A stretch of 36,752 bases of DNA from Ilumatobacteraceae bacterium (GTDB lineage Bacteria > Actinomycetota > Acidimicrobiia > Acidimicrobiales > Ilumatobacteraceae). The DNA is taken from positions 1 to 36,752 of the forward strand of contig JBGTEH010000028.1 in NCBI GenBank assembly GCA_041747915.1. Direction: 5' to 3'. Positions within the stretch are counted from its first letter, which is position 1, and every line of letters starts with the position of its first letter. Below are positions 21,849 through 36,494 of the stretch, one piece after another. Under the pieces are notes generated by a model. That model had not been told where the DNA came from. It saw only the letters and a list, made by a program, of their open reading frames with translations, and searched no databases. A program made the translations under genes and the position numbers.

Positions 21849-21897
21849 GGCTCGACCACCACTCGTTCTGCAGGCAGCGCTCGGTGGGACACTGCTG

Positions 21898-22509: not shown

Positions 22510-23469
22510 TCAGGCCGAGCGTCGTGCGAGGAGCAGGCCGAAGTCGCCCGCATCGTCGGTGAAGACCTCCGCATCATCGAAACCCGATTCGAACAGCTCG
22601 CCGATCAGGCGTTTCGGGTCGAACTTCGCCGAGATCTCGATCTGGAGTTCCTCGCCGGCCTCCACGACGAGATCGAGATCGAGGCGGTCGATCCGAACCC
22701 GTTCAGGTTCGTTCGCTCGGAGCCGCATGTCGATGCGCTCCTCACCGCCGTCCCACAGCGGGACGTAGGAGAAATTGCCGACGTCGAAGGTTCCATCGAG
22801 TTCGCGATTGATCGCATGCAATGCATTGCGGATGAAGGTGTCAGTGATGCCCTGAGCGTCGTTGTACGCAGCCATGAGTCGGTCGAGCGGCTTGAGCAGA
22901 TCAAAGCCGAGCAGCAGCCAATCCCCGGGATCGAGCACATTCTGCAGCGCGCCGAGAAACGCTGATCGCTCCTCGACGTAGAAGTTTCCGATCGTGCCCC
23001 CGAGCAGCGCCACCAGCCGGATCCCGCCCGCCGGGATCCGGTACAGGTCCAGATTGAAGTCACCGACGAGCGGTTCGACCGTCAGGTCTGCGTACCGACT
23101 CCGGAGCATCGCGGCTGCGGCGTGCAAGGTCTCGGCGCTGACATCGAGCGGCGTGAAGCGTTCGATCGCCCCATGAGCAACGAACGCGTCGAGCAACGTT
23201 CGGGTCTTGTCGCTCGTGCCGGAGCCGAGTTCGATCACCGTTGTCGCACCGGTCCGTTCGGCGATCATCGTCGAGTGCGTGGCCAGGATCTGGCGCTCGG
23301 CCTCGGTCTGGTAGTACTCGGGCAGCCTCGTGATCTGATCGAACAGGTCGCTGCCCCGATCGTCGTACAGCCATCGAGGGGGGACTCGCCGGGGCCGAGC
23401 CCCCAAGCTTCGACGGAGTTCGGCGTGCGCGCCCAATTGCGTCGCGGTGAGGTCGTCGTGGGAGTTCAT
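22510..23469 (-). CDS. egtD: L-histidine N(alpha)-methyltransferase (ergothioneine biosynthesis EgtD)
   Basis: 'PRWLYDDRGSDLFDQITRLPEYYQTEAERQIL...ELGSGTSDKTRTLL' is an EgtD signature. I prefer ATG 23469, which has an AAAGGA RBS, over the track's GTG 23487. Confidence 0.85.
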   Translation of the reverse strand: MNSHDDLTATQLGAHAELRRSLGARPRRVPPRWLYDDRGSDLFDQITRLPEYYQTEAERQILATHSTMIAERTGATTVIELGSGTSDKTRTLLDAFVAHGAIERFTPLDVSAETLHAAAAMLRSRYADLTVEPLVGDFNLDLYRIPAGGIRLVALLGGTIGNFYVEERSAFLGALQNVLDPGDWLLLGFDLLKPLDRLMAAYNDAQGITDTFIRNALHAINRELDGTFDVGNFSYVPLWDGGEERIDMRLRANEPERVRIDRLDLDLVVEAGEELQIEISAKFDPKRLIGELFESGFDDAEVFTDDAGDFGLLLARRSA

Positions 23470-23527
23470 CAGGGGTCCTTTGTTCACGGCGTGAGGCTGA
23501 TTCGATGGTGGTCGCGACCACGCCGAG

Positions 23528-24871
23528 TCATGTCGGTCGGTCGGTGGCGAGGCGCACGCCAGACGAGTGCCATCGCGTGTGCGGATGGAAGAAGTTGCGG
23601 TACGTCGCTCGGGTGTGACCGGGCGGGGTCAACACGCAGCCGCCGCGCACTACCTGCTGGCCTGACATGAACTTGCCGTTGTATTCGCCGATTGCGCCGT
23701 CGGCGATCCGGTATCCCGGGTAGGGCTGATAGGCGGAGGAGGTCCATTCCCAGCAGTCGCCGAACAATTGTCGGAGCTGCCCGGTCGACGCGCCAGCTGA
23801 GCTCGGGTGAAAGGAGAATGTGTCGTCGCCGGTGAGCGCATCCACGCACAGGAAGTTGCCTGCGATGGGCAAGTTGCGCGCAGCGTGTTCCCACTCGTAT
23901 TCAGTCGGGAGCCGCGCCCCGGCCCAGGTGGCAAATGCGTCAGCCTCGTAGTGCGAGATGTGGACAACTGGCTCGAACGGATCGACCGGCCGGACACCAG
24001 TCAGGGTGTGCAGCAACCAGCGCTCCGGTTCATCGGGGTCTCGACGCCAGTACTCGGGCGCCGTCCATTGTTCGGCTTGTGCTCGGTACCACCCGTCGGA
24101 CTTCCACAGCTCGGGGCGCTGGTAGCCACCGTCGGCGATGAAGGCCTCCCACTCGATCGTCGTCACCAACCGGTCGGCCAACGCAAAGTCGTAGAGGCGC
24201 ACTTCGTGTCGCGGTGACTCGTTGTCCCAACTGAACCGGTCGGCAGTCGGGTCCACTCCGATCTCGACGCAACCGCCGTCGAACTCGATCCATCCCAGCG
24301 GCCCCGAGTCGTGCCCTACGGCGACCTGACGGTCGACGTAGGAAGGGCCAACCGCCGGATTCAGCGACAGTGCGTGCTTGATGTCCATGAGGAGCAACTC
24401 CTGGTGCTGCTCCTCATGATGGGTGCCGAGCAGAACGATCTCGATGACGCGTCGGGCCTCGGCCGGCTCGACGTCCGAGAGGTTCGTGAGCAGCCCGACA
24501 ACTTCGGCGTCCACCGATGATCGGTACTGGGCAACCTCAGCAATCGTCGGACGTGTGACCATCCCCCGGTGGGGTCGTGGATGTCGAGCGCCGACTGCGT
24601 CGTAGTAACTGTTGTACAGAAAGCGGTACTCGGGTCGATCCCACATGCGACCGCTGGTGCCGTCGACACCGAGGACGAACTCGGCGAAGAACCACGTCGT
24701 ATGTGCGCGATGCCATTTGGTCGGGCTGGTGTCCGGCATCGACTGGATCATCTGGTCTTCTGCCGACAACGGCGCAGCGAGGCGCTCAGTACGCGCGCGG
24801 ACGTCCTCGAATCGCTTGCGCAGCGCGCTGACCTGATCGACATCGACGCCTGAGCGAACGGTGTGGGGCAC
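23528..24871 (-). CDS. egtB: ergothioneine biosynthesis sulfoxide synthase EgtB (DinB_2 + FGE-sulfatase domains)
   Basis: The DinB-like domain reads 'SMPDTSPTKWHRAHTTWFFAEF', and the FGE-type C-terminus includes 'GDCWEWTSSAY...RGGC'. I chose GTG 24871, which has an AAGGA RBS. The track's extension to 25054 overlaps the VOC gene. Confidence 0.85.
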   Translation of the reverse strand: MPHTVRSGVDVDQVSALRKRFEDVRARTERLAAPLSAEDQMIQSMPDTSPTKWHRAHTTWFFAEFVLGVDGTSGRMWDRPEYRFLYNSYYDAVGARHPRPHRGMVTRPTIAEVAQYRSSVDAEVVGLLTNLSDVEPAEARRVIEIVLLGTHHEEQHQELLLMDIKHALSLNPAVGPSYVDRQVAVGHDSGPLGWIEFDGGCVEIGVDPTADRFSWDNESPRHEVRLYDFALADRLVTTIEWEAFIADGGYQRPELWKSDGWYRAQAEQWTAPEYWRRDPDEPERWLLHTLTGVRPVDPFEPVVHISHYEADAFATWAGARLPTEYEWEHAARNLPIAGNFLCVDALTGDDTFSFHPSSAGASTGQLRQLFGDCWEWTSSAYQPYPGYRIADGAIGEYNGKFMSGQQVVRGGCVLTPPGHTRATYRNFFHPHTRWHSSGVRLATDRPT

Positions 24872-24986
24872 GGGAGTCCTTGTGGTGTGAGCAGTGGCAG
24901 GGGCGTTTGCACGAAACGCCAGCGACACATACAGACAACCGACGGTCTGAATCGTTACAGGGGTCGATTCTGACCATCGGCCGCGG

Positions 24987-25871
24987 TCACCGCGGTTCGG
25001 AGATTCGCACAACGTGGCCGTCGGGATCGCGTGCGACCAGATCGATCCCACCACCGAGCGATACGTCGACGTCGCTCATCGATGAGAGGAGCCGATCCCG
25101 AATGCCGTCGAGGTCGTTGGTGGTGCATCTCGTCTCGACGTACCAGAGGTCGCCGGGTGCGGTGTTAGCCGGTGGCGACTTCCCAGTTCGCGGCGACAGG
25201 TATTCCAGGAACTCGACCCCGGGCCCCGCCGATCCGCGGAGCCCCGTGATCCGGACTCGTGCGCCTTCGACCCCGCTCAGTGACTCCTGCTCGGTTCCCC
25301 AGTTCTCGCTCTCCCCGGCGACAGAAAGGCCGAGCTCGTCGCGGTAGAACCGCAGGCTCGCGACGGTCGAAGACACGGCGATCGCGGTGTGGTCGATCCC
25401 CAGGACGACTGCCTCGGTGGACTGCCAACGTGCATCACCCTTACCCGGTGGGAAGCTGATCAACTCGAGGGGGTGGCGATCCGGCCCGAGAAAGTAGAAG
25501 GCCTGAATTCCGCCCGCTGCGGGATTCCAATCGGGAAGGCGTTGCGGTGCAGAGCTGATGGCTTCGACTCCGGCGGCACGGAGCCGTCCGCACGCCGCAT
25601 CCATGTCGCTCACCACCAGAGCCACGTGCTGGAACCACAGGTCATTGCTGTGGCTGTCAAGTGGGGCTGGTCGGCCAGGCGGGCGCGACTCGACGAGGGT
25701 GAGGGATTCTCGCCCGAGCCGAACTGTGACGGTTCGCCCGTCCGAGGTGGATTGGTCATTCGCAACGAGCGTGCCGTCGAGGACCTCGATGAAGAACTCG
25801 GCCGCAGCGACGGCGCTACTCACGGAGAACGCGACCGTATCGACCGTGAGGGTCGGGTCCGAAGGACTCAC
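24987..25871 (-). CDS. two-domain VOC (glyoxalase/bleomycin-resistance/extradiol dioxygenase) family protein
   Basis: 294 aa with two repeated VOC modules ('FQHVALVVSDMDAA...', 'IDHTAIAVSSTVASLRFYRDELG'). The start is GTG. Confidence 0.75.
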   Translation of the reverse strand: MSPSDPTLTVDTVAFSVSSAVAAAEFFIEVLDGTLVANDQSTSDGRTVTVRLGRESLTLVESRPPGRPAPLDSHSNDLWFQHVALVVSDMDAACGRLRAAGVEAISSAPQRLPDWNPAAGGIQAFYFLGPDRHPLELISFPPGKGDARWQSTEAVVLGIDHTAIAVSSTVASLRFYRDELGLSVAGESENWGTEQESLSGVEGARVRITGLRGSAGPGVEFLEYLSPRTGKSPPANTAPGDLWYVETRCTTNDLDGIRDRLLSSMSDVDVSLGGGIDLVARDPDGHVVRISEPR

Positions 25872-25890
25872 AGACTCCCGGTCCTGAAGA

Positions 25891-26430
25891 TCATTGCGCA
25901 GCTGTCCACGCCGCTCGGGCTTCCGGCAAGGTCGGGTCGAAGTCCGGCTGGATTCGTTGGTTCAGGTCACGTAGATCGCTCCACAGGTCGTATGGCGAAG
26001 GGCGTCCCCAGAACCAATACCCGACGTAGATCTTGTCGATCACGAGCCCTGGCGCCAGGATCACCGTATGGGGCACGGTCGCCGCGTGATGGGTGTCGGT
26101 GTACTCGCGGATGTCGAGCTCGCTTTGCAGTTCGAGTGCTTCATCGGACAGGTACGTCCATGCTGCGCCCGTCGTGGAACGCAGCTTGAAGATGTCGTGG
26201 AGATCGTTCGGAACGACGGTCACCAACTGGGTGTACCCGACGGCGCACCACTGGTGGAACTCGATCATCGCGCGCTGGTGCTGGCGCTCGCGGGGGCAAT
26301 GCTCACCGCGGCCGAGCAGGAGCACCATCGCATCGTCGCCCTGAAGGGCTGACAATCGGCGCGGCGTTCCGTCCTGGTCGGGCAGCTCGAAGTCGGGAAA
26401 GGTGGTTCCGGGGACAAGGTCGGGTCGCAT
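25891..26430 (-). CDS. redoxin/AhpC-TSA-like thioredoxin-fold protein
   Basis: 179 aa. 'FPDFELPDQDGTPRRLSAL...VLLLGRGEHCPRE' is a peroxiredoxin-like N-terminus with a single CP motif. An AAGGAG RBS is present. Confidence 0.7.
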   Translation of the reverse strand: MRPDLVPGTTFPDFELPDQDGTPRRLSALQGDDAMVLLLGRGEHCPRERQHQRAMIEFHQWCAVGYTQLVTVVPNDLHDIFKLRSTTGAAWTYLSDEALELQSELDIREYTDTHHAATVPHTVILAPGLVIDKIYVGYWFWGRPSPYDLWSDLRDLNQRIQPDFDPTLPEARAAWTAAQ

Positions 26431-26445
26431 GGTTTCTCCTTGAGG

Positions 26446-26471
26446 GTGTTGGGTTGAGCGTGTTGGGTTGA
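26446..26471. repeat. tandem 12-bp direct repeat GTGTTGGGTTGA x2 (14-bp period) just upstream of the redoxin RBS
   Basis: Exact copies lie at 26446-26457 and 26460-26471. On the coding (minus) strand the region reads TCAACCCAACAC-GC-TCAACCCAACAC-CC-TCAAGGAG...ATG. Confidence 0.8.
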
Positions 26472-26495
26472 AGGTCTGGGCGGTCGGCGGATGGG

Positions 26496-28058
26496 TCAGG
26501 GTCGGATGCCCGGGATCGACAGCCGAATGCGGTAGACACCGGTGAGCGCCGTGATGTAGAGCGTGCGGGCGTCGTCGTCACCCCACGCAAGGTTGTGGGG
26601 GCTTTCGGGAAGCACCAGCGTTCCGAGGTGGGTCCCGTCGGAAGCGAGCACCCACACGCCCGACGGCCCGCAGACGTAGAGGTTGCCTCGCTCGTCGACC
26701 TTCAAGCCATCGATCGCATCCTCACCGGGATCCGCCGTCATGTCGAAGAAGACGATCCCGTTGGACAGCTCACCGTCACCGGCGACGTCGTAGCGCATCA
26801 CCACCTTGTGGTCGGGATCCCAGTTCCCGACGTAGAGCACCCGTTCGTCGGGTGAGAACGCGAGGCCGTTCGGGCCGGCCAAATCGTCGGACACGAGGGT
26901 GACGACCCCATCGCGGACGCAGAACACCCCGCTGATGTCGAGTTCCTTGTCAGGGTCCTCGTACACGTCCGGTAGGCCGAACGGCGGGTCGGTGAAATAG
27001 AGGGTGCCGTCGGAGCGGTACACCAGGTCGTTCGGACTGTTGAGGCGCTTGCCGTCGTAGCGGTCGGCCATCACGGTGATGTTGCCGTGCGGTTCGACAC
27101 GGATGACCCGCCGATTGCCGTGCTGGCAGATGGTCAGGCGACCGTCGGGGTCGAAGGTCAGACCGTTCGACCCAGGTTGGGTGTAGCAGTGGATGTCCGT
27201 GCCCGAGTACCCGCTGTTGGAACGGAACACAGAGATGGTTCCGGTTGGTGCCCAGCGGTAGATGGTGTTGCTGTTGGGTGAGCTGAACAACAGCCCGCGG
27301 TCGCCAGCCCACACCGGGCCCTCGGTGAACTCGAACCCAGCAGCGACCTGTTCGAGACGGGCGTCGGCCGGAAGGATGTCTCCGAGGCGGTCACCGGCAT
27401 CGAGAACCTCGAGTGGCACCGACCACGCCACCGCTGCCCGATCAGCAGAGTAGAAGTCGAGTGAGGCCGACCGCATCCAGATGTAGTTGGCGGGTGAGGT
27501 CGAGATCGGCCCGTTGATACCGAAGACGGCGAGCTGAAACTGCTCGCCGGGCTGCACATCCTGCGCCAGCACGACCCTGTTGGGGGTGTTGAACCCGCTG
27601 ACGACTTGTCCGCCGTTCACACCGAGGACCAGCGGCATCTGCCCGTTGACCCAGACTTCGGCATAGTCGTCGATCACGACTTCGAACACCAGCGTCGACC
27701 CCGTCGGGTCGAAGTCGCCGACACGATCGGGCACGGTGACTGTGATGCGATACCAGTTGAACGACACGCGGCCGGCACCGAGCCGTTCCTGCGTGTCGGC
27801 CGGATCGAGAACGCGCCAGTTCGAGTCGTCGTAGTCGGCGCCCTCGGCGTGGGGCACGACCTCGTAGGTGCGGCTCGGCGGGCCGCTCGGGCCGAGGTCG
27901 GCGCCGACCGTCACGAAGTCCACATCGACGACTTCGGCGTCGCAGTAGCGCCACTGACCACCGACGAGATTGACGCCGCTCGCGGTCTGCAAGTCGACGA
28001 TTGCGTCCGGTCGAATCGAAAGGAGCTCGGGCGGCCCCGGTGCTGGGTTGGTGCGCAT
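26496..28058 (-). CDS. SMP-30/gluconolactonase/LRE-like beta-propeller protein with an unrecognised ~230-aa N-terminal beta-rich domain
   Basis: 520 aa from MRTNPAPG, with a GGGAGG RBS. The C-terminal half has 'FTEGPVW', 'NSPNDLVYRSDGTLYFTDP' and 'GPNGLAFSPDE'. The track's 811-aa version is an artefact that runs through the upstream gene in another frame. Confidence 0.8.
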   Translation of the reverse strand: MRTNPAPGPPELLSIRPDAIVDLQTASGVNLVGGQWRYCDAEVVDVDFVTVGADLGPSGPPSRTYEVVPHAEGADYDDSNWRVLDPADTQERLGAGRVSFNWYRITVTVPDRVGDFDPTGSTLVFEVVIDDYAEVWVNGQMPLVLGVNGGQVVSGFNTPNRVVLAQDVQPGEQFQLAVFGINGPISTSPANYIWMRSASLDFYSADRAAVAWSVPLEVLDAGDRLGDILPADARLEQVAAGFEFTEGPVWAGDRGLLFSSPNSNTIYRWAPTGTISVFRSNSGYSGTDIHCYTQPGSNGLTFDPDGRLTICQHGNRRVIRVEPHGNITVMADRYDGKRLNSPNDLVYRSDGTLYFTDPPFGLPDVYEDPDKELDISGVFCVRDGVVTLVSDDLAGPNGLAFSPDERVLYVGNWDPDHKVVMRYDVAGDGELSNGIVFFDMTADPGEDAIDGLKVDERGNLYVCGPSGVWVLASDGTHLGTLVLPESPHNLAWGDDDARTLYITALTGVYRIRLSIPGIRP

Positions 28059-28060
28059 GA

Positions 28061-28888
28061 TCAGCCTCCCGTTGCGCCGGGCGCCTCGGCGCCGAGCACT
28101 GCGAGTAACTGGTCTTCGTCCGCTGACGAGGCCCCACTGACGCCGATTGCTCCGATCACGTGGCCGTCGTGCAGGATCGGCATGCCCCCTTGCAACGGGA
28201 CAGCGCGGGCGAGATGGAGCGCAGAAGGACGACCGTTGGCGGTCTGGTCCTCGAAGTCCTTGCTCGGCCGGCGGTAGATTGCAGCCGTCCGAGCCTTGTC
28301 GAACGACACGTTGACGCTGGCCACCTGAGCTTGATCGGGACGCCAGACATACAACAGTTCGCCGCCGGCGTCGACCACCGCGGCGACCGGCGCGACGTGA
28401 CGAGCCTGCGCTTCGCTGGCGACTGCTTCGGCGGCCGCCCGTGCGCCCTCCTGTGTGAGGGCGGGGACAACCGTCGATGAGAACGAAGCGGCCGCACCTG
28501 CGATCGAGATCGCCTCGTCCTCGTCGGGAGTCTCGCCGCTCGTGCCGATGGCGCCGACGACCTCGCCATCGACGACCAAGGGAATGCCACCGGTCAGGGC
28601 GACCGCACCGTGAAGTGCGAGAGCACCGAGTCGTCCGCCGCTGACCTGGGCCTCGATGTCGCGGCTCGGCCGCACGAAGATGGCGGCGGTGCGGGCCTTG
28701 TCGATCGCGACCTGGGAGCTGGCTGCTTGGGCGCTCTCGGTGCGGCTCATCAACAGCGTGTTGCCCCACGGGTCGACCACGGCGATCACCACCCGGCTGC
28801 CTTGGGCCCGTGCCGCTTCGAGTGCGGCCGCCATCACCTCCGTGGCACCGGCGAGATCGATGATTGTGCGTGACCTGGTCATGGGCAT
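28061..28888 (-). CDS. tandem-duplicated GlcG/HbpS-like (DUF336) heme-binding-type protein
   Basis: 275 aa with two DUF336 modules. Each carries a 'DKARTAAI(F/Y)' motif and a 'GG(I/M)P...G..IGAIG(T/V)SG' motif. An AAGGAG RBS is present, and the gene overlaps the upstream gene by 10 nt. Confidence 0.8.
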   Translation of the reverse strand: MPMTRSRTIIDLAGATEVMAAALEAARAQGSRVVIAVVDPWGNTLLMSRTESAQAASSQVAIDKARTAAIFVRPSRDIEAQVSGGRLGALALHGAVALTGGIPLVVDGEVVGAIGTSGETPDEDEAISIAGAAASFSSTVVPALTQEGARAAAEAVASEAQARHVAPVAAVVDAGGELLYVWRPDQAQVASVNVSFDKARTAAIYRRPSKDFEDQTANGRPSALHLARAVPLQGGMPILHDGHVIGAIGVSGASSADEDQLLAVLGAEAPGATGG

Positions 28889-29895
28889 GGTTGAACTCCT
28901 TGCGCCGCAGCAAGCGGCAGTCGTGGACCACGAGCGGTGGTGATCGCCGCCCAGATGGCTGTGTCAGTCGCGATGAACAAGACGTCTCGATCGACGCCGC
29001 CGAACGTGAAGTTGACGGTCCCCGGCAGATGGATCTCTCCGATCAGTTCCCCCACGGTGTCGAAGATCTGGACGCCGGCAGAAGACGATGCAAAGACCCG
29101 GCCGACATCGTCGACCTTGATTCCGTCAGGGAATCCAGGCGACGTGACGGCGAACAACCTGGAGTTGGTGAGGCGCCGGCCGTCGGAGACGTCGAACGCG
29201 ATGACGTGGTGCGGCAGGTGCACGTGGTAGCTGCCGGGCGCTTGGTTGGCGCCGCTGTCGGTGATGTACAGCGTGGTCTCGTCAGGCGAGAAGGCCAGGC
29301 CGTTCGGCTTGACGAACGAGTCGGCCACCACCGACATCCGGCCCGTCGCCGGGTCGTAGCGGTACACGAAGTCGCCGATCTCTGCGACGTCCTTGAACCC
29401 CTGCAGGTACCCGTACGACGGGTCGGTGAACCAGATGGTGCCGTCACTCTTCACGACGACGTCGTTGGGCGAGTTGAGCCGCAAGCCCGCCCACTCGTCG
29501 ACGATGGTGTCGACCGCGCCCGACGTCGGATCGACACGGCTGATGCGACCGTGATGCGTCACGTCGCCCTGCTCGCACACCACGAGGTGGCCGTGGTGGT
29601 CGAGGCACATGCCGTTGGCGGCGTGAACCTCGACCTCGATGGTGCTGAGGCGTTCGGGTCCGATCGGAAAACGCTTGCCGTCGAGCGCGAGTCGCTTGAT
29701 CGCCACCAGCGGTCCACAGTTCGCGGGCGTGGTCGAGAACCGAGGAAGCGTCGTGAAGTACAGCGCATCCTCAACCGGCGCATAGACGAGGCCCTCGTGG
29801 GCGTCGGTCGCGATGACCTCGATCAGCTGCGGATCCGACCCGAGCACCGTCTCGAACGACGGGTCGTGCACGACGAAGGCGGTCGGTTGAATCAT
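28879..29895 (-). CDS. SMP-30/gluconolactonase/LRE family protein
   Basis: 338 aa from MIQPTAFVVHD. Family motifs are 'NSPNDVVVKSDGTIWFTDPSYG' and 'KPNGLAFSPDETTLYITDSG'. Its ATG overlaps the DM13 stop (ATGA at 29892-29895). Confidence 0.85.
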   Translation of the reverse strand: MIQPTAFVVHDPSFETVLGSDPQLIEVIATDAHEGLVYAPVEDALYFTTLPRFSTTPANCGPLVAIKRLALDGKRFPIGPERLSTIEVEVHAANGMCLDHHGHLVVCEQGDVTHHGRISRVDPTSGAVDTIVDEWAGLRLNSPNDVVVKSDGTIWFTDPSYGYLQGFKDVAEIGDFVYRYDPATGRMSVVADSFVKPNGLAFSPDETTLYITDSGANQAPGSYHVHLPHHVIAFDVSDGRRLTNSRLFAVTSPGFPDGIKVDDVGRVFASSSAGVQIFDTVGELIGEIHLPGTVNFTFGGVDRDVLFIATDTAIWAAITTARGPRLPLAAAQGVQPCP

Positions 29896-30605
29896 GACGG
29901 GGGGGTGAGGCCAGCTGATCCGAATGCAACACCGAATCGCACACACCAGACGACCACGGTCGAGTACCGGTCGAGATCCACATCGGGTGGGATCTCGTAG
30001 TTCTGTGGTCCGACGTTGCCCTTGAGGTCACCGAGGTCGACGAAGTCGGCGCCCAGTTGGTCGACCGAAGCGTCAGGGGCGGCGGACGACAGATAGACGT
30101 TCAGATCCGGGCCGTTGTCGGTCTCGAAGTCCTCGAAGCGCAGGAAGCGCTGCGTGGATCCGTCGTTGAGCACGAGCGCGCGGCCCGACGTCGGGTGGCT
30201 GCGGTCCATGAAAACTCCGTCGACCAGCGTCACCACGACCGGTTCCACGGGCTCGACTGCTTGTGCCGGCTCGGTCGATTCGGTCGGTTGATCCGGTTCG
30301 GCTTCGATCCCCATCTCCGGGGGCGGCTGATCGACCTCGGCCAGAACCGGCACGCTGTCGGCTGCCATCTCCTCGTTCATGTCGCTGGCGAGCTCCGCGC
30401 TGATCGCGTCACTCGGGAGGCCCGAGGCACCTGGCCCGGCAGTGAAGACGGGCGAAGCTTCATCGACCGTGTCGTCGATGAACAACGTCTGCACGGCGAA
30501 CACCCCGAACACGAGCCACGCGAGGACTCCGATACCGACCACTGCGACCGGGAGCAACACTTTCCACCGGGCGCGCAACGCGCTCCAGAACGATGCTCGC
30601 GTCAT
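29892..30605 (-). CDS. membrane-anchored DM13 domain protein
   Basis: 237 aa with an N-terminal TM helix (VLLPVAVVGIGVLAWLVFGVFAV) and an acidic Pro/Glu-rich linker. The C-terminus 'FLRFEDFETDNGPDLNVYLS...VVVWCVRFGVAFGSA' is the DM13 signature. Confidence 0.85.
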   Translation of the reverse strand: MTRASFWSALRARWKVLLPVAVVGIGVLAWLVFGVFAVQTLFIDDTVDEASPVFTAGPGASGLPSDAISAELASDMNEEMAADSVPVLAEVDQPPPEMGIEAEPDQPTESTEPAQAVEPVEPVVVTLVDGVFMDRSHPTSGRALVLNDGSTQRFLRFEDFETDNGPDLNVYLSSAAPDASVDQLGADFVDLGDLKGNVGPQNYEIPPDVDLDRYSTVVVWCVRFGVAFGSAGLTPPS

Positions 30606-30606
30606 C

Positions 30607-32139
30607 TCAGCTCATCTCATCGACGAGGTGAGCGGAAACGCGCAGCGCGTTGGCGATGATGGTCAACGTCGGATTGACGGCCGACGACGAGCGGAAGAAG
30701 GAGCTGTCGACGACATACACGTTGTCGAGGTCGTGCAACTTGCAGTTGATGTCGAGCGCCGAAGTCGTCGGGTCCGTCCCGAACCGAACCGTGCCGTTCT
30801 GGTGGGATACGCCTTCGATCGAGTTCCGTCCACCGTTGTAGTGGCCGATCTCGAAGTACTCGTCGCGACACCGCATCGTCTCGAGCAGCCCTTTCCATTT
30901 GTCGATCAGTCGCTCATGGGCGACGGCGTTGGTGTCCCAATAGGCCACCTTGACCGTGCCGTCGGGCTCGACCGTCACGCGGTTTCGTTCGCTCGGAAGA
31001 TCCTCGGTCGTCAGCCAGAACTCGACCGCGTGAGCAGCCTGTTCCACAGCGTCTGGGCCCGAGAACGCCGACACGTGCTGACGACCGAGCATCTGGATCG
31101 CCCCGAGCGGATACTCCCATTCACTCTCGAGCGCATCGTCGCCGTAGTAATAGTCGTTGATTCCGAGTGTCTTCTGGAAGCGCGTCGGGTTGGGCAGCGT
31201 GGAGAACGCGATGAGCGCCGAGTTGTGGTGCATCATCAGATTCCGACCGACGACGCCGGAGGAGTTTCCGAGCCCGTCGGGATGGTGGTCGTTGGCCGAT
31301 TTCAAGAGCAGCGCGGCGCTGTTGATGGCGCCACAGGCGACGATGACGACGTTCGCGGAGTACTCCTCGCGTTCGCCCTGACGGTCGACGACGACGGTTG
31401 AGACCTTGCGCCCCGAAGCATCGGTGTCGAGACGCTCGACGCGACAGTTCGTCAGCATGGTCACATTCGGGAAGCTGGCGAGTGCCGGCACGACGCAGAT
31501 CGTCTCGCTGTCGGACTTCGCGTTGGTCAGGCACGGGTGGCCGTCACACGTCTCGCATTTGATGCACTTGGAAAGATGCGGGGCGGACTCGTCGAGCAGA
31601 ACTCCCATCGGGAGCGGGAAGGGGTGCAGACCACGGGCCGCGAGGTCGTCCCACAGTTGTTGCATCCGGGGTTCGTTCGTCACCGGCGGATAGGGGTACT
31701 CCTTCGACACCGGCGGATCGAAAGGATCGATCCCGTGTCGGCCGTGCACCTGGTAGAGCTGCTCGGCTTCGCTGTACCAGGGCTCGAAGTCGGCGTAGCT
31801 CAGTGGCCAGGCCGGCGATTCGCCGCCGTGGTGTTGAACGACGCCGAAGTCCCGTTCGCGCATCCGGAACAACACCGCGCCGTACACCTTTGTGTTTCCA
31901 CCCACGTAGAAGTGTTGCTTGGGCAGGAATGGTGTGCCGTCGCGATCGAGGTAAGCGCCGCTGTTGCGATATCGGTGTTCGCCCCAGACGGCAACCGGGC
32001 TCCAGTTCTCGTGCTCCCGCGGCAAGTAGTCCCCCCGTTCGAGAAGGAGAACACGCTTTCCCGCCGCGCCGAGCGCGTGGAACGCGGTGCCGCCACCGGC
32101 TCCCGAGCCGATGACGATGACGTCGTAGTGGTCGGTCAT
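30607..32139 (-). CDS. GMC-family FAD-dependent oxidoreductase with an internal CxxCxxCxxxxC cluster
   Basis: 510 aa from ATG 32139, with a GAGGAG RBS. The FAD motif is 'YDVIVIGSGAGGG'. The GMC C-terminus reads 'HQNGTVRFG...VYVVDSSFF.SSSAVNPTLTIIANALR'. The Cys cluster CIKCETCDGHPC lies at 31531-31566. Confidence 0.85.
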   Translation of the reverse strand: MTDHYDVIVIGSGAGGGTAFHALGAAGKRVLLLERGDYLPREHENWSPVAVWGEHRYRNSGAYLDRDGTPFLPKQHFYVGGNTKVYGAVLFRMRERDFGVVQHHGGESPAWPLSYADFEPWYSEAEQLYQVHGRHGIDPFDPPVSKEYPYPPVTNEPRMQQLWDDLAARGLHPFPLPMGVLLDESAPHLSKCIKCETCDGHPCLTNAKSDSETICVVPALASFPNVTMLTNCRVERLDTDASGRKVSTVVVDRQGEREEYSANVVIVACGAINSAALLLKSANDHHPDGLGNSSGVVGRNLMMHHNSALIAFSTLPNPTRFQKTLGINDYYYGDDALESEWEYPLGAIQMLGRQHVSAFSGPDAVEQAAHAVEFWLTTEDLPSERNRVTVEPDGTVKVAYWDTNAVAHERLIDKWKGLLETMRCRDEYFEIGHYNGGRNSIEGVSHQNGTVRFGTDPTTSALDINCKLHDLDNVYVVDSSFFRSSSAVNPTLTIIANALRVSAHLVDEMS

Positions 32140-32257
32140 GTGTGATTCTCCTCGCAAGAACGTTGCGTTGGTTGGGAGTGACGGGCGGGCGACGAGCAGT
32201 CCGATGTCGTGCCGTCTCTCGCCGAGACGGTTGCGTTACAACCCTTCGTCGTCGAGG

Positions 32258-34165
32258 TCACTGAGCGGCGCGGCGCGCCCGAAGCCATTCGGCAACAGAC
32301 CACGCCTGGAACGGACATCCCGTCGCCTGGTGAGGTGCGTCGCCGTCGGCCGTCTCCGACACCGAGCCGAGGCCCCACTCTGCGAGGTGAGGTTCGGCAT
32401 TCTCGACAGCGCGGACAGCATCGTCGTGGTCCCCGCCCTTGGCCATCAGATCGACGAGCGGGCCGAGAAGCCACGGCCACACCGTCCCTTGGTGGTAGGC
32501 GCCATCTCGCTCGCCTGGCCCACCGCGATGCCGCCCGATGTAGTGCGCGTCGTGCGGCGCGAGCGACCGAAGCCCGATCGAGGTGCGCAGTGATGCGGTG
32601 GCAGAGAGCACGTCCTGGACATCGCTCGCGGCGATCGAGCCAGCGATCACCGCAGCAGCGACCACCTGATTCGGTCGGATCTGCTCGCCGCTGTCATCGT
32701 CGGCGACGTCGAGCCAGCCCTGACCACGCCGTGGGAAGCGCTGCGCGAACGAGACAGAAGCCCGTTGCGCGAGCACCTCGAACCGTTGGTCGTCACCGCC
32801 CACCGAGCGGGCAATCTGCGCTGCTGCGGACAGTCCGCTGATCCACAGCGCGTTGACCTCGACCGGCTTGCCAGCGCGTGGAGTGATCGGTCGCCCATCG
32901 ACGCGGGCATCCATCCAGGTGAGTGCCACACCGTCAGCACCCTGGGTGATGAGGCCGTCGTCGTGGACGCGGAGTCCGTACCGGGTTCCGTCGAGGTGAT
33001 GGCGCACCACGTCGTCGATCGTCGGCAGGAGCAACCGTCCGAGGTCGAGATCGCCCGTGCGTTCGATGTGGCGCCCGATCGCGTGGAGGAACCACATCGT
33101 CGCGTCGGCGGTGTTGTACTCGGTCATGCCGACGTCGGCAGTGTTGGCCAGCATTCCTTCCGACACCGTCTCACCAGCAGTGAGGAGCAGCGCCCGTCCT
33201 TCCTCGACTCGTCCGGTTTCGAGGAACAGACCTTCGTACGACGTCATCGTGTCGCGGGACCATTCACCGAACCACGGATAGCCGGCGACAACGGTCGGGC
33301 CGTTCGTTGCGGTCACCACGAACTGGTCAGCCGCATGCGCGAGCAGTGCGTCGGACTCGCCGGTGGCGCCCGCGGTGGTGGCCACCGCACGGGCACGAGC
33401 CCGCCTCGACTCGATGACGTCAGCCGCTGGCGGGACCGGCATGTCGAGATCACGTGCCCACGCCGACACGTCGATCGATTCGCCCGTCGCGAGCGACGCG
33501 GTGAAGCGGCCTGCGTGGAAGAGATCCTCGACGGCGTTCAAGCCCCGATCCGATTCCTCGCGATGACGAACACCGTGATACCAGGCGCCGTCCGGTCGGA
33601 AGTCGGGTCCGGCGACGCGGTAGGCCCCCTCGAACACGAATCCGTCGGCGGTGGTGGACATGTCAGGATCACCCCCTCCGTCGAACCGTTCACCGTGGGC
33701 GTCGCGCCACGTACAGAGTGCCCCGATCTCGACCCTGATGGTTCCGGGTGCTGACAGGACGGTCCATCGGGTCACGACGCCTGGCCGAACGTGGGGCATC
33801 GCCAGTTCCATCTGGATGGTGACGTCATCGGCCGACCACTGCCAACGCGGAACCCCGTCGATCAGGTCGAAACGATCCAACAACGTGTGGCCAGCGGGGG
33901 AGATTGCGCCAGACGCCCACTCGTGCGTGGACAGCTCGAGCCGGCGGTCGCCAACCAGCGCGACAGGTTCGAGCGCGGCGAGCCCAAGGTGCCGGCCGAT
34001 CGGCGGTTGGGTCGCCACGACCAGCAGGCCGTGGTAGCGACGCGTCCGCAGCCCGGCGACGGTTCCCATCGCAAAGCCGCCGAGCCCATCGGTCACGAGC
34101 CACTCGCGTTGCGCGGCATCGTCCAGCGAGCCGGTTGTCTGACGTCCGAACGTGATGCAGGTCAT
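32258..34165 (-). CDS. amylo-alpha-1,6-glucosidase / glycogen-debranching-enzyme family (GDE_C type) protein
   Basis: 635 aa. The N-terminus 'EWLVTDGLGGFAMGTVAGLRTRRYHGLLV' and the C-terminal (alpha/alpha)6-type region 'YHQGTVWPWLLGP' match this family. Confidence 0.8.
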   Translation of the reverse strand: MTCITFGRQTTGSLDDAAQREWLVTDGLGGFAMGTVAGLRTRRYHGLLVVATQPPIGRHLGLAALEPVALVGDRRLELSTHEWASGAISPAGHTLLDRFDLIDGVPRWQWSADDVTIQMELAMPHVRPGVVTRWTVLSAPGTIRVEIGALCTWRDAHGERFDGGGDPDMSTTADGFVFEGAYRVAGPDFRPDGAWYHGVRHREESDRGLNAVEDLFHAGRFTASLATGESIDVSAWARDLDMPVPPAADVIESRRARARAVATTAGATGESDALLAHAADQFVVTATNGPTVVAGYPWFGEWSRDTMTSYEGLFLETGRVEEGRALLLTAGETVSEGMLANTADVGMTEYNTADATMWFLHAIGRHIERTGDLDLGRLLLPTIDDVVRHHLDGTRYGLRVHDDGLITQGADGVALTWMDARVDGRPITPRAGKPVEVNALWISGLSAAAQIARSVGGDDQRFEVLAQRASVSFAQRFPRRGQGWLDVADDDSGEQIRPNQVVAAAVIAGSIAASDVQDVLSATASLRTSIGLRSLAPHDAHYIGRHRGGPGERDGAYHQGTVWPWLLGPLVDLMAKGGDHDDAVRAVENAEPHLAEWGLGSVSETADGDAPHQATGCPFQAWSVAEWLRARRAAQ

Positions 34166-34253
34166 GGCGGTCTGTCCGGCGAACCTGCCAAACGTGACAC
34201 GGTCCAGGGTGACGTGAGGGGGACGGGTGAGGACAGGTGACGGGTCGAGACGA

Positions 34254-34544
34254 TCAGGTGCGCAGGAAGTCGTGGAACGAGCGGATCAGCGCCTCGCACG
34301 TGTCGCGGGCGGGCAGCTGCGGGTGTACACGGCCGAGTACGTCAACGGTCCGTCGCGTCTGCTCGACGAAGTACCCGCACTCTCGACACCTGCGCAGATG
34401 CCGTTCGAAATGCTCGATCTCGACGGGTGTCATCGCACCTTCGATGTACTCGGTGACGAGCTCGACGACCTGCTGGCACAGATACGGACCGCGCCGAAGC
34501 CGGAACCGGCGCAGGACGTTGGCGACGTTCCCTCGACTCACCAC
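34254..34544 (-). CDS. small cytoplasmic zinc-binding anti-sigma (ZAS, zf-HC2, RsrA-like) protein with no adjacent sigma gene
   Basis: About 96 aa from GTG 34544 (or 34541). '...YLCQQVVELVTEYIEGAMTPVEIEHFERHLRRCRECGYF' shows the pattern C...H-x3-C-x2-C. It is a clear paralog of the protein at 36249-36494. Upstream of the GTGs, the track's longer ORF has poor codon usage. Confidence 0.6.
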   Translation of the reverse strand: MVSRGNVANVLRRFRLRRGPYLCQQVVELVTEYIEGAMTPVEIEHFERHLRRCRECGYFVEQTRRTVDVLGRVHPQLPARDTCEALIRSFHDFLRT

Positions 34545-34698
34545 GTCTCGCAGTCCATCGAGGCCGCGGATCGTTACGAAAATGTTCGCGAATAGTCGAA
34601 GTTGGTCGCCGGCGTGTAACGGACGGGCCAGCACGCTGGACTGACCTGCCGCGAGCACGATCGATCGTGCCCCAGACTTCGAGGATTTGAGGAGTGTC

Positions 34699-35526
34699 AT
34701 GAATGGACTCGTCGGCAAGACGGCAATCGTCACGGGTGGCAGTTCGGGTATCGGCCAGGCGATCGCGACCCGGCTGGGCAACGACGGGGTGAACGTCGCG
34801 ATCAACTACGTCGGTCCGCTCGACGGTGCGCTGGCCACGAAGGAAGCGATCGATGCCGGGCTGGAAGCCTGCGTCGATGCGGTGAACTCGTGTAGCCAAC
34901 CGAGTCGTGCGATCGTCGTCGAGGCCGATGTATCGGACGAAGCGTCGGTCGAGCGGATGTTCGCCGAGGTACGCGCGGAGTTCGGCACGGTTGACTTCCT
35001 CGTGAACAACGCTGGTATCCAGGTCGCTCGCGAGACGGACATGCTCGACGCAGCGGCGTTCGATCGCGTGATCGCCGTCAACTTGCGCGGTTCGTTCCTG
35101 TGTGCACGCGAGCAGGTCCGACAGCTGCTCGCCGATGATCGGCCGGGATCGATCGTCAACGTGTCGTCGGTCCACCAGGTCATTCCGAAGCCGAAGTTCC
35201 TCGGATACGCGGTGAGCAAGGGCGGTATGCAGAACCTCACCCGCACGCTCGCCCTCGAGTACGCCGGTCGCGGAATACGCGTCAATGGGATCGGTCCCGG
35301 CGCGACGGTGACCCCGATCAACCGGTCGTGGATCGATGACCCCGACAAGCGCGCGATGGTGACGAGCCACATTCCGATGGGACGCGCTGGTGACGCCGAG
35401 GAAATGGCGGCGGTGACTGCGTTCCTGTTGTCGGACGAAGCCGGCTACATCACCGGCCAGACGATCTTCGTCGACGGTGGGCTGACGTTGTTCGCGGACT
35501 TCCGCGGCACGTGGTCGTCGGAGTAA
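34699..35526 (+). CDS. short-chain dehydrogenase/reductase, glucose 1-dehydrogenase-like
   Basis: 275 aa from ATG 34699, with a GAGGAG RBS. Motifs are 'TGGSSGIGQA', 'NNAG' and 'SSVHQVIPKPKFLGYAVSKGGMQNLTRTLALEYAGRGIRVNGIGPGA'. Confidence 0.8.
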   Translation: MNGLVGKTAIVTGGSSGIGQAIATRLGNDGVNVAINYVGPLDGALATKEAIDAGLEACVDAVNSCSQPSRAIVVEADVSDEASVERMFAEVRAEFGTVDFLVNNAGIQVARETDMLDAAAFDRVIAVNLRGSFLCAREQVRQLLADDRPGSIVNVSSVHQVIPKPKFLGYAVSKGGMQNLTRTLALEYAGRGIRVNGIGPGATVTPINRSWIDDPDKRAMVTSHIPMGRAGDAEEMAAVTAFLLSDEAGYITGQTIFVDGGLTLFADFRGTWSSE

Positions 35527-35571
35527 CGCTGCGGGAAACAAAGCGACGCCCCTTGATCGAGATCGTCAAGG

Positions 35572-36252
35572 ATGACACCGGTCGGGTGGGACGGGAGTAC
35601 CGTCCTGGGTCGAATGGAGCTCGGCACCACGACGAATGAAGCGGCGTTCGTCGAGCGGTTGCGCGCGGGTGACGATCAGGCGTTCGCATCACTGGTCGAC
35701 CGGTACTACACGAGCATGCTGCATGTCGCTCGCGGGTACGTGGCGTCGAAGGAAGCCGCGGAGGACGTGGTACAGGAGACCTTCCTCGGGGTGATCACGG
35801 GCATTGATCGCTTCGAAGGAAGGTCGTCGCTGAAGACCTGGATGTTCCGGATCCTGGTCAATCGCGCACAGACCCGTGGTGAACGCGAGGGTCGAGTCCG
35901 ACCGTTTTCGTCGATCGGCGACGAAGCGACGCCAGCTGTCGACCCTGACCGATTCGAAAAGACCGGCCGCTGGGCCGGGTTCTGGTCGTCGCCGCCGTCG
36001 GCGGAGGAGCTGCCGGAAGCGAGCGTGCTCGCTACGGAACTGGGGGATCGGCTGCTGGCCGCCATTGCCACGTTGCCCGAGACACAGCGCTCTGTCTTGG
36101 AGTTGCGCGACGTGCTCGGGTTCTCGTCGTACGAGGTGTGCGAGCTGCTCGCGATCAGTGAGGTGAATCAGCGCGTCTTGTTGCATCGAGCTCGAAGCAG
36201 GGCCCGTGCAATACTCGAGGGGTTCGTGGGCACGGCCGAGGGGGATCAGTGA
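35572..36252 (+). CDS. ECF-type RNA polymerase sigma-70 factor
   Basis: Region 2 reads 'AFASLVDRYYTSMLHVARGYV...AEDVVQETFLGV...KTWMFRILVNRA'. Region 4 reads 'LPETQRSVLELRDVLGFSSYEVCELLAISEVNQRVLLHRARSR'. An alternative start lies at ATG 35614. Confidence 0.85.
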   Translation: MTPVGWDGSTVLGRMELGTTTNEAAFVERLRAGDDQAFASLVDRYYTSMLHVARGYVASKEAAEDVVQETFLGVITGIDRFEGRSSLKTWMFRILVNRAQTRGEREGRVRPFSSIGDEATPAVDPDRFEKTGRWAGFWSSPPSAEELPEASVLATELGDRLLAAIATLPETQRSVLELRDVLGFSSYEVCELLAISEVNQRVLLHRARSRARAILEGFVGTAEGDQ

Positions 36253-36494
36253 GGGCGCAACCTGCGGTGACCTGTGCCCAGCTCGTCGAGGTTGTCACCG
36301 AATGGATGGAGGGAGCGCTCTCGGACACCGAGCGGGTCCAGGTCGAGGAGCATTTGGCAATCTGCCCGAGCTGCGACGGCTACCTCGCACAACTGCGGCA
36401 CTCGATCGAGGTGCTACGCGAGTCGCCCCGCCATGTCCCGCCCGCCGAAGCGCGCCACGCCCTGGTCGAGGCATTTCGTCGCCACCAGCACTGA
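36249..36494 (+). CDS. ZAS-type (zf-HC2) anti-sigma factor, cytoplasmic, cognate to the upstream ECF sigma
   Basis: 81 aa. Its GTG overlaps the sigma stop (GTGA at 36249-36252). 'VTCAQLVEVVTEWMEGAL...VEEHLAICPSCDGY' gives H-x3-C-x2-C. Confidence 0.8.
   Translation: MRAQPAVTCAQLVEVVTEWMEGALSDTERVQVEEHLAICPSCDGYLAQLRHSIEVLRESPRHVPPAEARHALVEAFRRHQH

Follow-up and report, generated by a model that had tools for sequence, protein, structure and literature searches.

A predicted sigma-factor regulon around a lactonase-GlcG-redoxin gene core in an Ilumatobacteraceae bacterium

What kind of unit is formed by a flavoprotein gene, a membrane-protein gene, a tandem GlcG gene and two lactonase-type genes that lie almost without spacing on one strand? 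The question is raised by contig JBGTEH010000028.1 of an Ilumatobacteraceae bacterium (GenBank assembly GCA_041747915.1), of which positions 1 to 36,752, hereafter the window, were analysed. Between 26,496 and 32,139 its minus strand encodes a GMC oxidoreductase (GMC) of the type that uses flavin adenine dinucleotide (FAD), a DM13-domain membrane protein (DM13), an SMP-30 propeller (SMP30S), a protein with two GlcG domains (GlcG2) and an SMP-30 propeller with an additional domain (SMP30L). The original prediction, made from the sequence of the window, read these as an operon for a sugar- or alcohol-oxidizing module of fixed stoichiometry that passes electrons to the membrane. Our analysis points instead to a regulon, and not a five-protein machine, as the true unit, the five genes being one lineage's splice of widespread stress-regulon members. 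The feature missed earlier is an extracytoplasmic function (ECF) sigma/zinc anti-sigma regulon, which also takes in an AhpC-like redoxin, a VOC-fold protein and the ergothioneine proteins EgtB and EgtD. We consider the architecture, namely a regulon, a seven-gene unit within it, a conserved core and DM13 as a captured member, to be very probable from sequence comparison; the full explanation, a redox-stress sigma regulon whose lactonase-GlcG-redoxin core would serve glucose oxidation and thiol defence, is the one towards which we lean, with no great assurance.

Conservation of the gene set

The neighbourhood was surveyed from the sides of SMP30L, DM13 and GMC. For SMP30L, 80 metagenome loci were split at 64% identity, and presence in the locus was counted where at least 6 kb of flank was available. 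For DM13, a genome scan gave 406 loci, the best 80 of which are metagenome-assembled genomes of Acidimicrobiia, and neighbours were identified by tblastn with all window proteins. GlcG lies directly upstream of SMP30L in 20/20 relatives of at least 64% identity and in 34/39 of those below. SMP30S upstream and AhpC downstream of SMP30L accompany the closer relatives (11/11 and 21/22) and few of the more distant ones (2/23 and 2/38, respectively). GMC occurs in the locus in 8/14 closer and 7/22 more distant relatives, the ECF sigma gene in 6/14 and 9/22, VOC in 1/14 and 8/22, and DM13 in 0/14 and 2/22. The conserved core is SMP30S-GlcG-SMP30L-AhpC-like redoxin; it is often accompanied by GMC, a short-chain dehydrogenase (SDR), VOC, glycosidases (GDE, GH15, GH63-like), a disulfide reductase and the sigma/anti-sigma pair. 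DM13 belongs to the island only sporadically, and the GMC-DM13-SMP30S junctions are specific to the window lineage, in which DM13 is inserted between GMC and SMP30S. The view of the five genes as a conserved set fails on these counts, as DM13 is absent from the loci of close relatives and GMC from part of them. Tight junctions in a set that is not conserved, and into which DM13 was inserted in one lineage, cannot be read as the signature of a fixed-stoichiometry complex.

Related loci illustrate how the pieces are combined. In L089 the order is zf-HC2-GH15-GMC-SGL-HbpS-SGL-AhpC, without DM13, and in L086 an SGL-HbpS-SGL-AhpC block is divergent from SDR-cyclase-GMC. The SMP30L family is very large, and GMC has more than 8000 relatives of 62-80% identity across Actinobacteria; in three GMC contexts SDR-(cyclase)-GMC has GDE, an MGH1-like glycosidase and ECF sigma/zf-HC2 in its vicinity, and no DM13. 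SDR orthologues (63-81% identical) adjoin both GMC and the core operon, and VOC recurs beside GMC in other phyla (L102, L122, L124, L137, L141, L152, L155 and L170). In many Actinobacteria (L082-L086) the GMC orthologue belongs to a tightly packed trio, SDR-cyclase (PF04199)-GMC, of which the cyclase is missing from the window.

Seen from DM13, and among the best 80 of the 406 loci, the gene adjoins GMC only in L002, a 2.1-kb contig whose GMC is 94% identical; SMP-30 or GlcG was found beside it by tblastn in 0/80, and no other cluster gene is near it in 78/80 of these Acidimicrobiia genomes. Around the next-closest DM13 (74% identity) the genes are unrelated; DM13 is usually flanked by divergently oriented housekeeping genes, typically for a deaminase and a class IV aminotransferase. 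In L001 (DM13 68% identity) DM13, EgtB and EgtD are directly adjacent, the EgtB-EgtD pair following DM13 with a 4-nt overlap, and in L053 the pair is 1.3 kb from DM13. In the island of other phyla DM13 turns up in several settings (Table 1). In the non-actinobacterial island of L170 (15410-18532), GDE, DM13 and a type II NADH dehydrogenase-like gene (NDH2) are joined by 4-nt overlaps; in L155 (300-8000) DM13 adjoins an NDH-2-like gene, and a DoxX-like membrane protein is also present.

The block itself is sound. The five genes are intact, and the open reading frame (ORF) listing reproduces exactly the coordinates and junctions first reported: a 1-nt gap between GMC and DM13, a 4-nt ATGA overlap between DM13 and SMP30S, a 10-nt overlap between SMP30S and GlcG2, and a 2-nt gap between GlcG2 and SMP30L. 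The annotated starts match the positions at which homologue alignments begin. Shine-Dalgarno-like sequences precede GMC, GlcG2, SMP30L and the AhpC-like gene; SMP30S lacks one and would depend on the ATGA overlap. An independent 8118-bp hot-spring metagenome contig spans 25800-32964 with 4 mismatches, and biocrust contigs cross both DM13 junctions with 0 mismatches; the gene order, reproduced from two environments, is therefore no assembly artefact. The source is an actinobacterium of Acidimicrobiia type with 65% G+C, represented in hot-spring and biocrust metagenomes. Pfam confirmed the earlier domain calls for all five proteins, none of which has an equivalog-level NCBIfam match. The literature on the gene combination, on bacterial DM13 function and on the promoter considered below gave no description of such a system, in agreement with the earlier remark that no characterised system of this composition was known.

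A candidate promoter and its control pair

The five genes would be tied to their neighbours by an ECF-type promoter motif, GTAACG-N16/17-GAC, predicted from sequence conservation. Four patterns were tested: the TGTAACG 7-mer, strict GTAACG-N16/17-GAC, extended GTAACG-N16/17-GAC[ATG]G and relaxed GTAACG-N16/17-G(A/T)C. The 7-mer has 3 copies in the window, all intergenic and directed at GMC, SDR and EgtB, the EgtB copy lying directly 3' of the VOC stop. The extended pattern gives 24 matches in 820 kb, a number that none of 180 hexamer permutations (median 2) exceeds. The strict pattern, with 33 matches, is surpassed by permutations of the hexamer (maximum 59), since hexamers that follow codon bias occur often, and the extended -10 element is thus needed. 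The 7-mer alone is not enriched 5' of cluster genes in related loci (6/41, with control 7-mers similar); the motif convinces only in its two-block form, in which the spacing is fixed and the geometry leaderless. In many matches, including those at the GDE ATG and the EgtB GTG, the start codon follows the -10 element by 5-10 nt, and a recurrent distance of this kind is the geometry of leaderless actinobacterial transcripts.

In relatives the motif stands before sugar, redox and control genes alike (Table 1), among them a Glu_dehyd_C glucose dehydrogenase (1e-48), an aldose 1-epimerase (1e-23), GH15/TREH_N proteins and a Pyr_redox_2 protein that carries CxxxxC. It is carried by 1/80 of the Acidimicrobiia DM13 genes in the best 80 loci, that of L001. 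In the window, the minus strand from 32239 to 24958 holds no further consensus copy, a single one-mismatch match lying inside SMP30S, away from starts, and neither the motif nor a terminator above chance level was found between the SMP30L, AhpC-like and VOC genes. As no second copy occurs before the EgtB promoter at 24958, a seven-gene transcript, GMC-DM13-SMP30S-GlcG2-SMP30L-AhpC-VOC, is predicted, with VOC probably its last gene. The five-gene operon first proposed thus survives as a tight block and not as the entire unit, which continues on the same strand into the AhpC-like and VOC genes. A general sigma-70 promoter scan found 0 promoters, and the 6 terminators found against 6.7 expected are at chance level, so that these scans are uninformative. 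Since the same motif lies 5' of the SDR, the sigma gene, the zinc anti-sigma (ZAS) paralogue, GDE and EgtB-EgtD, we read the whole of 22.5-36.5 kb as one regulon island. Close relatives are transcribed in soil, as short contigs of a metatranscriptome (run X22) are 90-97% alike to the AhpC-like gene, the SMP30L 3' end, SMP30S and DM13 (25800-30200).

Control falls to an ECF sigma factor paired with a small zinc anti-sigma, which is cytoplasmic and RsrA-like. The anti-sigma has no transmembrane segment and carries C9..H35xxxC39xxC42, a spacing which we take to be that of RsrA; it matches NCBIfam antisigma (2e-9) and antisig_RsrA (2e-5), and stays below the RsrA equivalog cut-off (TIGR03988, 24.6 versus 62.5 bits). 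Two RsrA-like zinc anti-sigma paralogues are present in the window, one coupled to the sigma gene and one orphan 5' of GDE, and the same orphan arrangement is seen in L089; the orphan could be a feedback brake.

Further observations concern the reach of the motif and the borders of the island. A full match at 3864-3889 on the minus strand may be a chance occurrence or an unannotated target; the Arg-rich ORF of 74 aa that starts 20 nt beyond it is of questionable coding value. A protein family without a Pfam match (221-325 aa, LWPxHFD..G(I/A)SPGD) has the regulon promoter in L084 (7592-8257) and L001 (about 3200-4180). A hotdog thioesterase gene also lies downstream on the same strand, and a 989-aa SARP/AfsR-like regulator (Trans_reg_C, BTAD and NB-ARC/STAND NTPase; 18948-21917, minus strand) borders the island.

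Table 1. Genes and candidate promoters of the island, by position in the window or by related locus
Feature	Position or locus	Strand	Size	Remarks
GMC (FAD dehydrogenase)	30607-32139	minus	510 aa	ORF listing
DM13 membrane protein	29892-30605	minus	237 aa	ORF listing
SMP30S (lactonase-type propeller)	28879-29895	minus	338 aa	ORF listing
GlcG2 (tandem GlcG)	28061-28888	minus	275 aa	ORF listing
SMP30L (SMP-30 with extra domain)	26496-28058	minus	520 aa	ORF listing
AhpC/TSA-fold redoxin	25891-26430	minus		Pfam; 65-nt gap after SMP30L
Two-domain VOC/glyoxalase-fold protein	24987-25871	minus		Pfam; 19-nt gap after AhpC-like gene
EgtB, ergothioneine biosynthesis sulfoxide synthase	23528-24928	minus		NCBIfam TIGR03440, 526 bits, cut-off 360
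EgtD, histidine N-alpha-methyltransferase	22510-23487	minus		NCBIfam TIGR03438, 292.2 bits, cut-off 290.9
GDE-type amylo-alpha-1,6-glucosidase	32258-34165	minus		Pfam GDE_N/GDE_C
Orphan small ZAS paralogue, C..HxxxCxxC	34254-34544	minus	96 aa	Pfam zf-HC2, translation
SDR, glucose-1-dehydrogenase type	34687-35526	plus		NCBIfam NF005559, 221 bits, cut-off 215
ECF sigma factor	35572-36252	plus		Pfam Sigma70_r2/r4_2
RsrA-like zinc anti-sigma, soluble	36249-36494	plus	81 aa	4-nt overlap with sigma stop
Candidate promoter of GMC, GTAACG-N17-GAC, ECF type	32214-32239	minus		74 nt from ATG at 32139
Candidate promoter of EgtB, GTAACG-N16-GTC	24934-24958	minus		5 nt before GTG at 24928, leaderless
Candidate promoter of SDR, GTAACG-N17-GAC	34616-34641	plus		45 nt before ATG
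Motif copy of sigma gene	35523-35547	plus		24 nt upstream of sigma gene
Candidate leaderless promoter of orphan zf-HC2 gene	34553-34577	minus		start codon 8 nt after -10 element
Candidate near-consensus leaderless promoter of GDE, GTCACG-N16-GAC	34174-34198	minus		ends 8 nt before ATG
Motif 5' of sigma gene	L082, L086
Motif 5' of SDR	L086, L121
Motif 5' of SMP30S	L086, L099, L102, L131, L134
Motif 5' of zf-HC2 and GH15	L089
Motif 5' of GH15	L084, L134
Motif 5' of MGH1-like glycosidase	L083
Motif 5' of Pyr_redox_2 disulfide reductases	L084, L100
Motif 5' of RibD_C	L084
Motif 5' of AhpC paralogue	L131
Motif 5' of MDR glucose dehydrogenase and divergent aldose 1-epimerase	L101
Motif 5' of molybdopterin oxidoreductase	L130
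Motif 5' of DM13	L130, L001			leaderless in L130; DM13-EgtB-EgtD in L001
DM13 in island, other phylum	L130			directly after AhpC
DM13 in island, other phylum	L152			opposite strand
DM13 in island, other phylum	L155			tandem DM13 beside NDH-2-like gene
DM13 in island, other phylum	L170			GMC-VOC-x-HbpS/cupin-double SGL-MGH1 GH-x-GDH-GDE-DM13-NDH2

Protein features and competing explanations

SMP30S and SMP30L are lactonases by family, and lactone hydrolysis is predicted for both. The Pfam SGL model matches SMP30S at E=9e-33 and residues 244-504 of SMP30L at E=7e-39. SMP30S is a six-bladed propeller (PDB 3dr2_A, 1e-33) with conserved metal ligands E34, N141/N144, N198 and D257; the motifs EG, NSPND, PNG and DGxKxD, holding divalent-metal ligands E/N/N/D, occur in both propellers and are conserved in 45-84 homologous segments. 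Both are nearest to the gluconolactonases 3dr2 and 3e5z, to which Foldseek aligns an AlphaFold2 (AF2) model of SMP30L with TMt 0.84-0.86. The N-terminal domain of SMP30L (about residues 14-222), modelled separately with AF2 from 15 alignment rows (pLDDT 72), resembles in Foldseek a GH2 N-terminal jelly roll (top match 1yq2_A, E=5e-6, TM-score about 0.5), in agreement with a weak Pfam match to Glyco_hydro_2_N (E=0.077); the modelled protein is thus a putative GH2_N-like sugar-binding jelly roll fused to an SGL propeller. In Planctomycetes, Acidobacteria and others, SMP30L proteins of 810-910 aa carry a second, C-terminal SGL propeller (P0242-P0300; L170 8001-10532). A reading of such proteins (850-900 aa tested) as SMP30S-SMP30L fusions was rejected, as their two propellers match SMP30S equally (31% and 30%), the extra propeller being no more than a possible SMP30S orthologue.

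The GMC protein begins with DVIVIGSGAGGG, which contains the GxGxxG FAD motif, and has Pfam domains GMC_oxred_N (1e-13) and GMC_oxred_C (4e-16). In the PDB it is best matched by 6a2u_B (3e-29) and 7w2j_A (1e-22), that is, the Burkholderia cepacia FAD-glucose dehydrogenase (BcGDH, FAD-GDH) alpha subunit and Gluconobacter fructose dehydrogenase. The Cys cluster noted at the outset is borne out: the four residues of C192-x2-C195-x2-C198-x4-C203 (CxxCxxCxxxxC) are invariant in 121/121 homologues and fall at the 3Fe-4S site of Fe-S flavodehydrogenases, the loop aligning, with different spacing, to the BcGDH loop with Cys212/213/218/222. The 3Fe-4S Cys ligands and the catalytic His/Asn pair are described for BcGDH (PMC6719666); the His of SHQNG and the Asn of AVNPT align to this pair, His476 and Asn519. 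A probable Fe-S cluster is thus predicted for the Cys loop. No gene for a Tat-signal hitch-hiker or a multiheme cytochrome c subunit was found in the window or related loci, and as GMC also lacks an export signal, it is probably cytoplasmic.

GlcG2 consists of two HbpS-like domains (11-132 and about 144-262; total Pfam E=5e-57), and many orthologues add a C-terminal cupin (Cupin_2 in a 402-aa orthologue), which GlcG2 lacks. Its PDB relatives, at 1e-14 to 4e-7, are EfgA, NahX, HbpS and PduOC; since family members bind heme (HbpS, PduOC) or formaldehyde (EfgA), its ligand cannot be read from the family. The AhpC-like protein has a thioredoxin-fold Pfam match (6e-11), an invariant RGEHCPRE and Cys45-Pro46 in 30/30, and is a redoxin of uncertain chemistry.

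The mechanism we propose, drawn from family membership and context, is tentative. Thiol-oxidizing or electrophile stress would free the sigma factor from its zinc anti-sigma; glycosidases would then release glucose from storage glucan or compatible solutes, aldose would be oxidized to aldonolactone by the cytoplasmic Fe-S GMC and a glucose dehydrogenase of SDR type (MDR type in relatives), and the two metal-dependent SMP-30 lactonases, one with its sugar-binding-like jelly roll, would convert the lactone to aldonate. The reducing power thus gained would feed the redoxin, the disulfide reductase and ergothioneine-based defence. For GlcG2 the likeliest role is not that of a heme electron carrier but that of an accessory or sensor which, like EfgA, binds a small ligand; DM13 would act on the outer side of the membrane, independently of GMC. 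The proposal that sugar is oxidized via lactone to acid therefore keeps the support of context (glucose dehydrogenases, aldose 1-epimerase and GH15/GDE/GH63-like glucosidases), including the neighbours to which it had appealed, as the GDE-type glucosidase (Pfam GDE_N/GDE_C) and the SDR (above its NCBIfam cut-off) do fit sugar metabolism; its second half, electron transfer to the membrane, lacks support.

Several points weigh against this explanation. First of all, any substrate assigned to the five proteins is conjecture, and the constant pairing of two lactonases with GlcG is left unexplained. Second, GMC is only a distant relative of FAD-GDH: it has V and S in place of the glucose contacts Asn474/Asn475, it lacks the covalent-FAD His (His105), and the explanation names no electron acceptor for its probable Fe-S cluster. 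Third, the redoxin lacks the Thr/Ser of the peroxiredoxin PxxxT/SxxC motif, position -3 from the invariant Cys45 being an invariant G42. Furthermore, in the Acidobacteria-like locus L155 (312-3395) GlcG-cupin, GlcG and SMP30L have signal peptides and GMC has none, which argues against an obligatory hand-over of substrate from GMC to a lactonase; the actinobacterial orthologues lack signal peptides, and the module apparently changes compartment between phyla. Finally, the GTAACG promoter is a prediction from conservation alone, and in the soil metatranscriptome, the only RNA source, the fragments come from close relatives and no contig spans a junction.

A bolder variant, which we rate as rather unlikely, holds that the island represents an undescribed ECF sigma group with a cytoplasmic RsrA-like zinc anti-sigma and a leaderless GTAACG-N16/17-GAC promoter, governing a multi-phylum stress module with an obligatory lactonase-GlcG-lactonase-redoxin core of new biochemistry, in which DM13, sometimes with NDH-2, is an extracytoplasmic redox partner; if true, it would for the first time place the DM13 domain in a functional context.

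A less likely explanation still is detoxification of reactive carbonyls or electrophiles, in which GlcG2 would bind or sense an aldehyde, VOC and the lactonases would process thioester, lactone and hemithioacetal adducts, GMC would oxidize a toxic alcohol or aldehyde, and the redoxin and ergothioneine would scavenge, the sugar genes being peripheral. Domain 1 of GlcG2 is indeed nearest to EfgA (6bws, 1.6e-14), a formaldehyde sensor (PMC8153426); the glyoxalase-fold protein is closely linked to GMC in several phyla, by a 4-nt overlap in L170; the anti-sigma is RsrA-like, and ergothioneine genes, disulfide reductase and redoxin are in the regulon. However, it fails to account for the glucosidases, glucose dehydrogenases and aldose epimerase that recur behind the one promoter, or for the sugar-binding-like domain of SMP30L, and aldehyde binding by GlcG2 has no residue-level support.

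The model first proposed has the five proteins form a stoichiometric respiratory module, with electrons running from FAD via Fe-S to heme in GlcG2 and/or DM13 and on to the membrane. The DM13 protein matches PF10517 over profile positions 2-105 of 105 (E=4e-22, 79 bits, cut-off 25) and, as had been stated, is membrane-anchored, being the sole one of the five with a transmembrane segment (KD19 2.65 at residue 20). Its layout is an N-terminal signal anchor with a +4 charge before it and an acidic stretch after it (positive-inside), a conserved juxtamembrane FxDDxVxE, an acidic Pro/Glu linker and a C-terminal domain with invariant RSHP, TDNGPDL and WCxRF and one invariant Cys (C221); this domain is predicted to face outwards, as an extracytoplasmic domain. 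Electron transfer by DM13 is a bioinformatic proposal that is reflected in the Pfam name, and the name speaks for the module, as do the tight junctions, the membership of GMC in a direct-electron-transfer Fe-S class that normally needs a partner acceptor, and the recurrence of DM13 in the island in other phyla, beside NDH-2 in L155 and L170. Yet the GMC-DM13 adjacency exists only in the window lineage, and elsewhere DM13 is mostly a solitary gene in housekeeping surroundings; its domain is predicted outside, whereas GMC, SMP30S, GlcG2 and SMP30L have no signal peptide; no cytochrome or hitch-hiker subunit accompanies them in the window or related loci; and the solved structure to which GlcG2 is most closely related is that of a formaldehyde sensor and not of a cytochrome. 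The idea that GMC could hitch-hike outwards on a Tat signal-anchor of DM13 was rejected, as the window protein has RAR and the RR of some homologues is not conserved. Topology and conservation thus give no support to a relay from GMC to DM13 or to a path through heme, and we judge the module quite improbable.

Synthesis of an ascorbate-like lactone antioxidant, with SMP-30 working towards the lactone and GMC then oxidizing the aldonolactone, is highly improbable: animal SMP-30 is the gluconolactonase of ascorbate (vitamin C) synthesis and the regulon has an antioxidant flavour (ergothioneine, redoxin), but aldonolactone oxidases and dehydrogenases are, to our knowledge, of the VAO family and not GMC, the nearest GMC relatives oxidize free sugars, and the window and related loci show no gene that would back such a pathway, for instance one for a uronate reductase. 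That unrelated genes were merely packed together by rearrangement has a similarly slight chance and is largely refuted already, for although the GMC-DM13-SMP30S junctions are lineage-specific and actinobacterial genomes of high GC often have compact overlaps, four of the five genes recur with AhpC and VOC across phyla, the genes have the promoter motif in common with the local sigma gene, and DM13 itself carries it in L130 and L001.

Relation to known systems

Taken as an ECF/zinc-anti-sigma stress regulon, the island is made of known enzyme families around an uncharacterised core. The core operon and its companions are represented by thousands of sequences from soil, biocrust, hot-spring and sponge-associated Actinomycetota, Acidobacteria and Planctomycetes, of which no member has been characterised. 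One predicted sigma/anti-sigma switch makes a puzzling gene list a testable stress regulon with a defined promoter; it suggests a way in which uncultured soil bacteria might turn stored sugar into reducing power and ergothioneine-based protection, and it would set tandem GlcG proteins and bacterial DM13 in a regulatory context for the first time.

Among the enzymes, GMC shares with the direct-electron-transfer FAD dehydrogenases (B. cepacia FAD-GDH alpha-beta-gamma, Gluconobacter fructose dehydrogenase) the GMC fold over a full-length match, a Cys-rich loop at the 3Fe-4S position and the catalytic His and Asn; their loop, on the other hand, is CCxxxxCxxxC and that of GMC CxxCxxCxxxxC, and GMC would be a cytoplasmic, partner-less version of these biosensor-relevant enzymes. 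The glucose dehydrogenase plus gluconolactonase route (Xanthomonas XC5397, PDB 3dr2; entry to the non-phosphorylative Entner-Doudoroff pathway) has the type of propeller nearest to both SMP30S and SMP30L, which keep the metal ligands, and its dehydrogenase step has counterparts in the SDR glucose-1-dehydrogenase of the island and in the MDR glucose dehydrogenase and aldose epimerase of the relatives' regulon; here, however, two lactonases are always paired with GlcG and redoxin, one of them has gained a GH2_N-like domain, and no gluconate kinase or dehydratase is seen. Both GlcG2 domains match the GlcG/DUF336 family (EfgA, the redox sensor HbpS, the PduO C-terminal domain, NahX), whose members differ in that the GlcG2 domains are fused in tandem, that orthologues add a cupin and that the gene always lies between two lactonase genes. 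DM13 matches over the full domain found in the eukaryotic Skeletor and Knickkopf-type proteins, where it occurs with DOMON, whereas the bacterial protein is single-domain and membrane-anchored, with FxDDxVxE and an acidic linker and no DOMON.

In terms of control, two sigma systems come close. SigD (ECF40) of mycobacteria and corynebacteria recognizes GTAACA/G-N16-CGAT in Mycobacterium abscessus and GTAACA/G-N17-18-GAT in Corynebacterium glutamicum (PMC13537577), with a -35 element nearly identical to the one predicted here. The -10 element here is GAC(T/A)G, however, the anti-sigma of SigD, RsdA, is a membrane protein as against the 81-aa soluble ZAS, the SigD regulon is oriented towards the cell envelope, and the NCBIfam search of window proteins gave no SigD model match. 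SigR-RsrA of Streptomyces and SigH-RshA of mycobacteria resemble the pair in that a small soluble zinc anti-sigma with C..HxxxCxxC is encoded directly behind the ECF sigma gene, in the apparent autoregulation of the sigma gene, and in a regulon with a redoxin, a disulfide reductase and synthesis of a low-molecular-weight thiol, here ergothioneine. They differ in the promoter, which is GGAAT-N18-GTT for the SigR type and GTAACG-N16/17-GAC here, and in the RsrA model, which the anti-sigma matches below cut-off; moreover, the regulon predicted here is dominated by sugar-oxidizing and lactonase genes.

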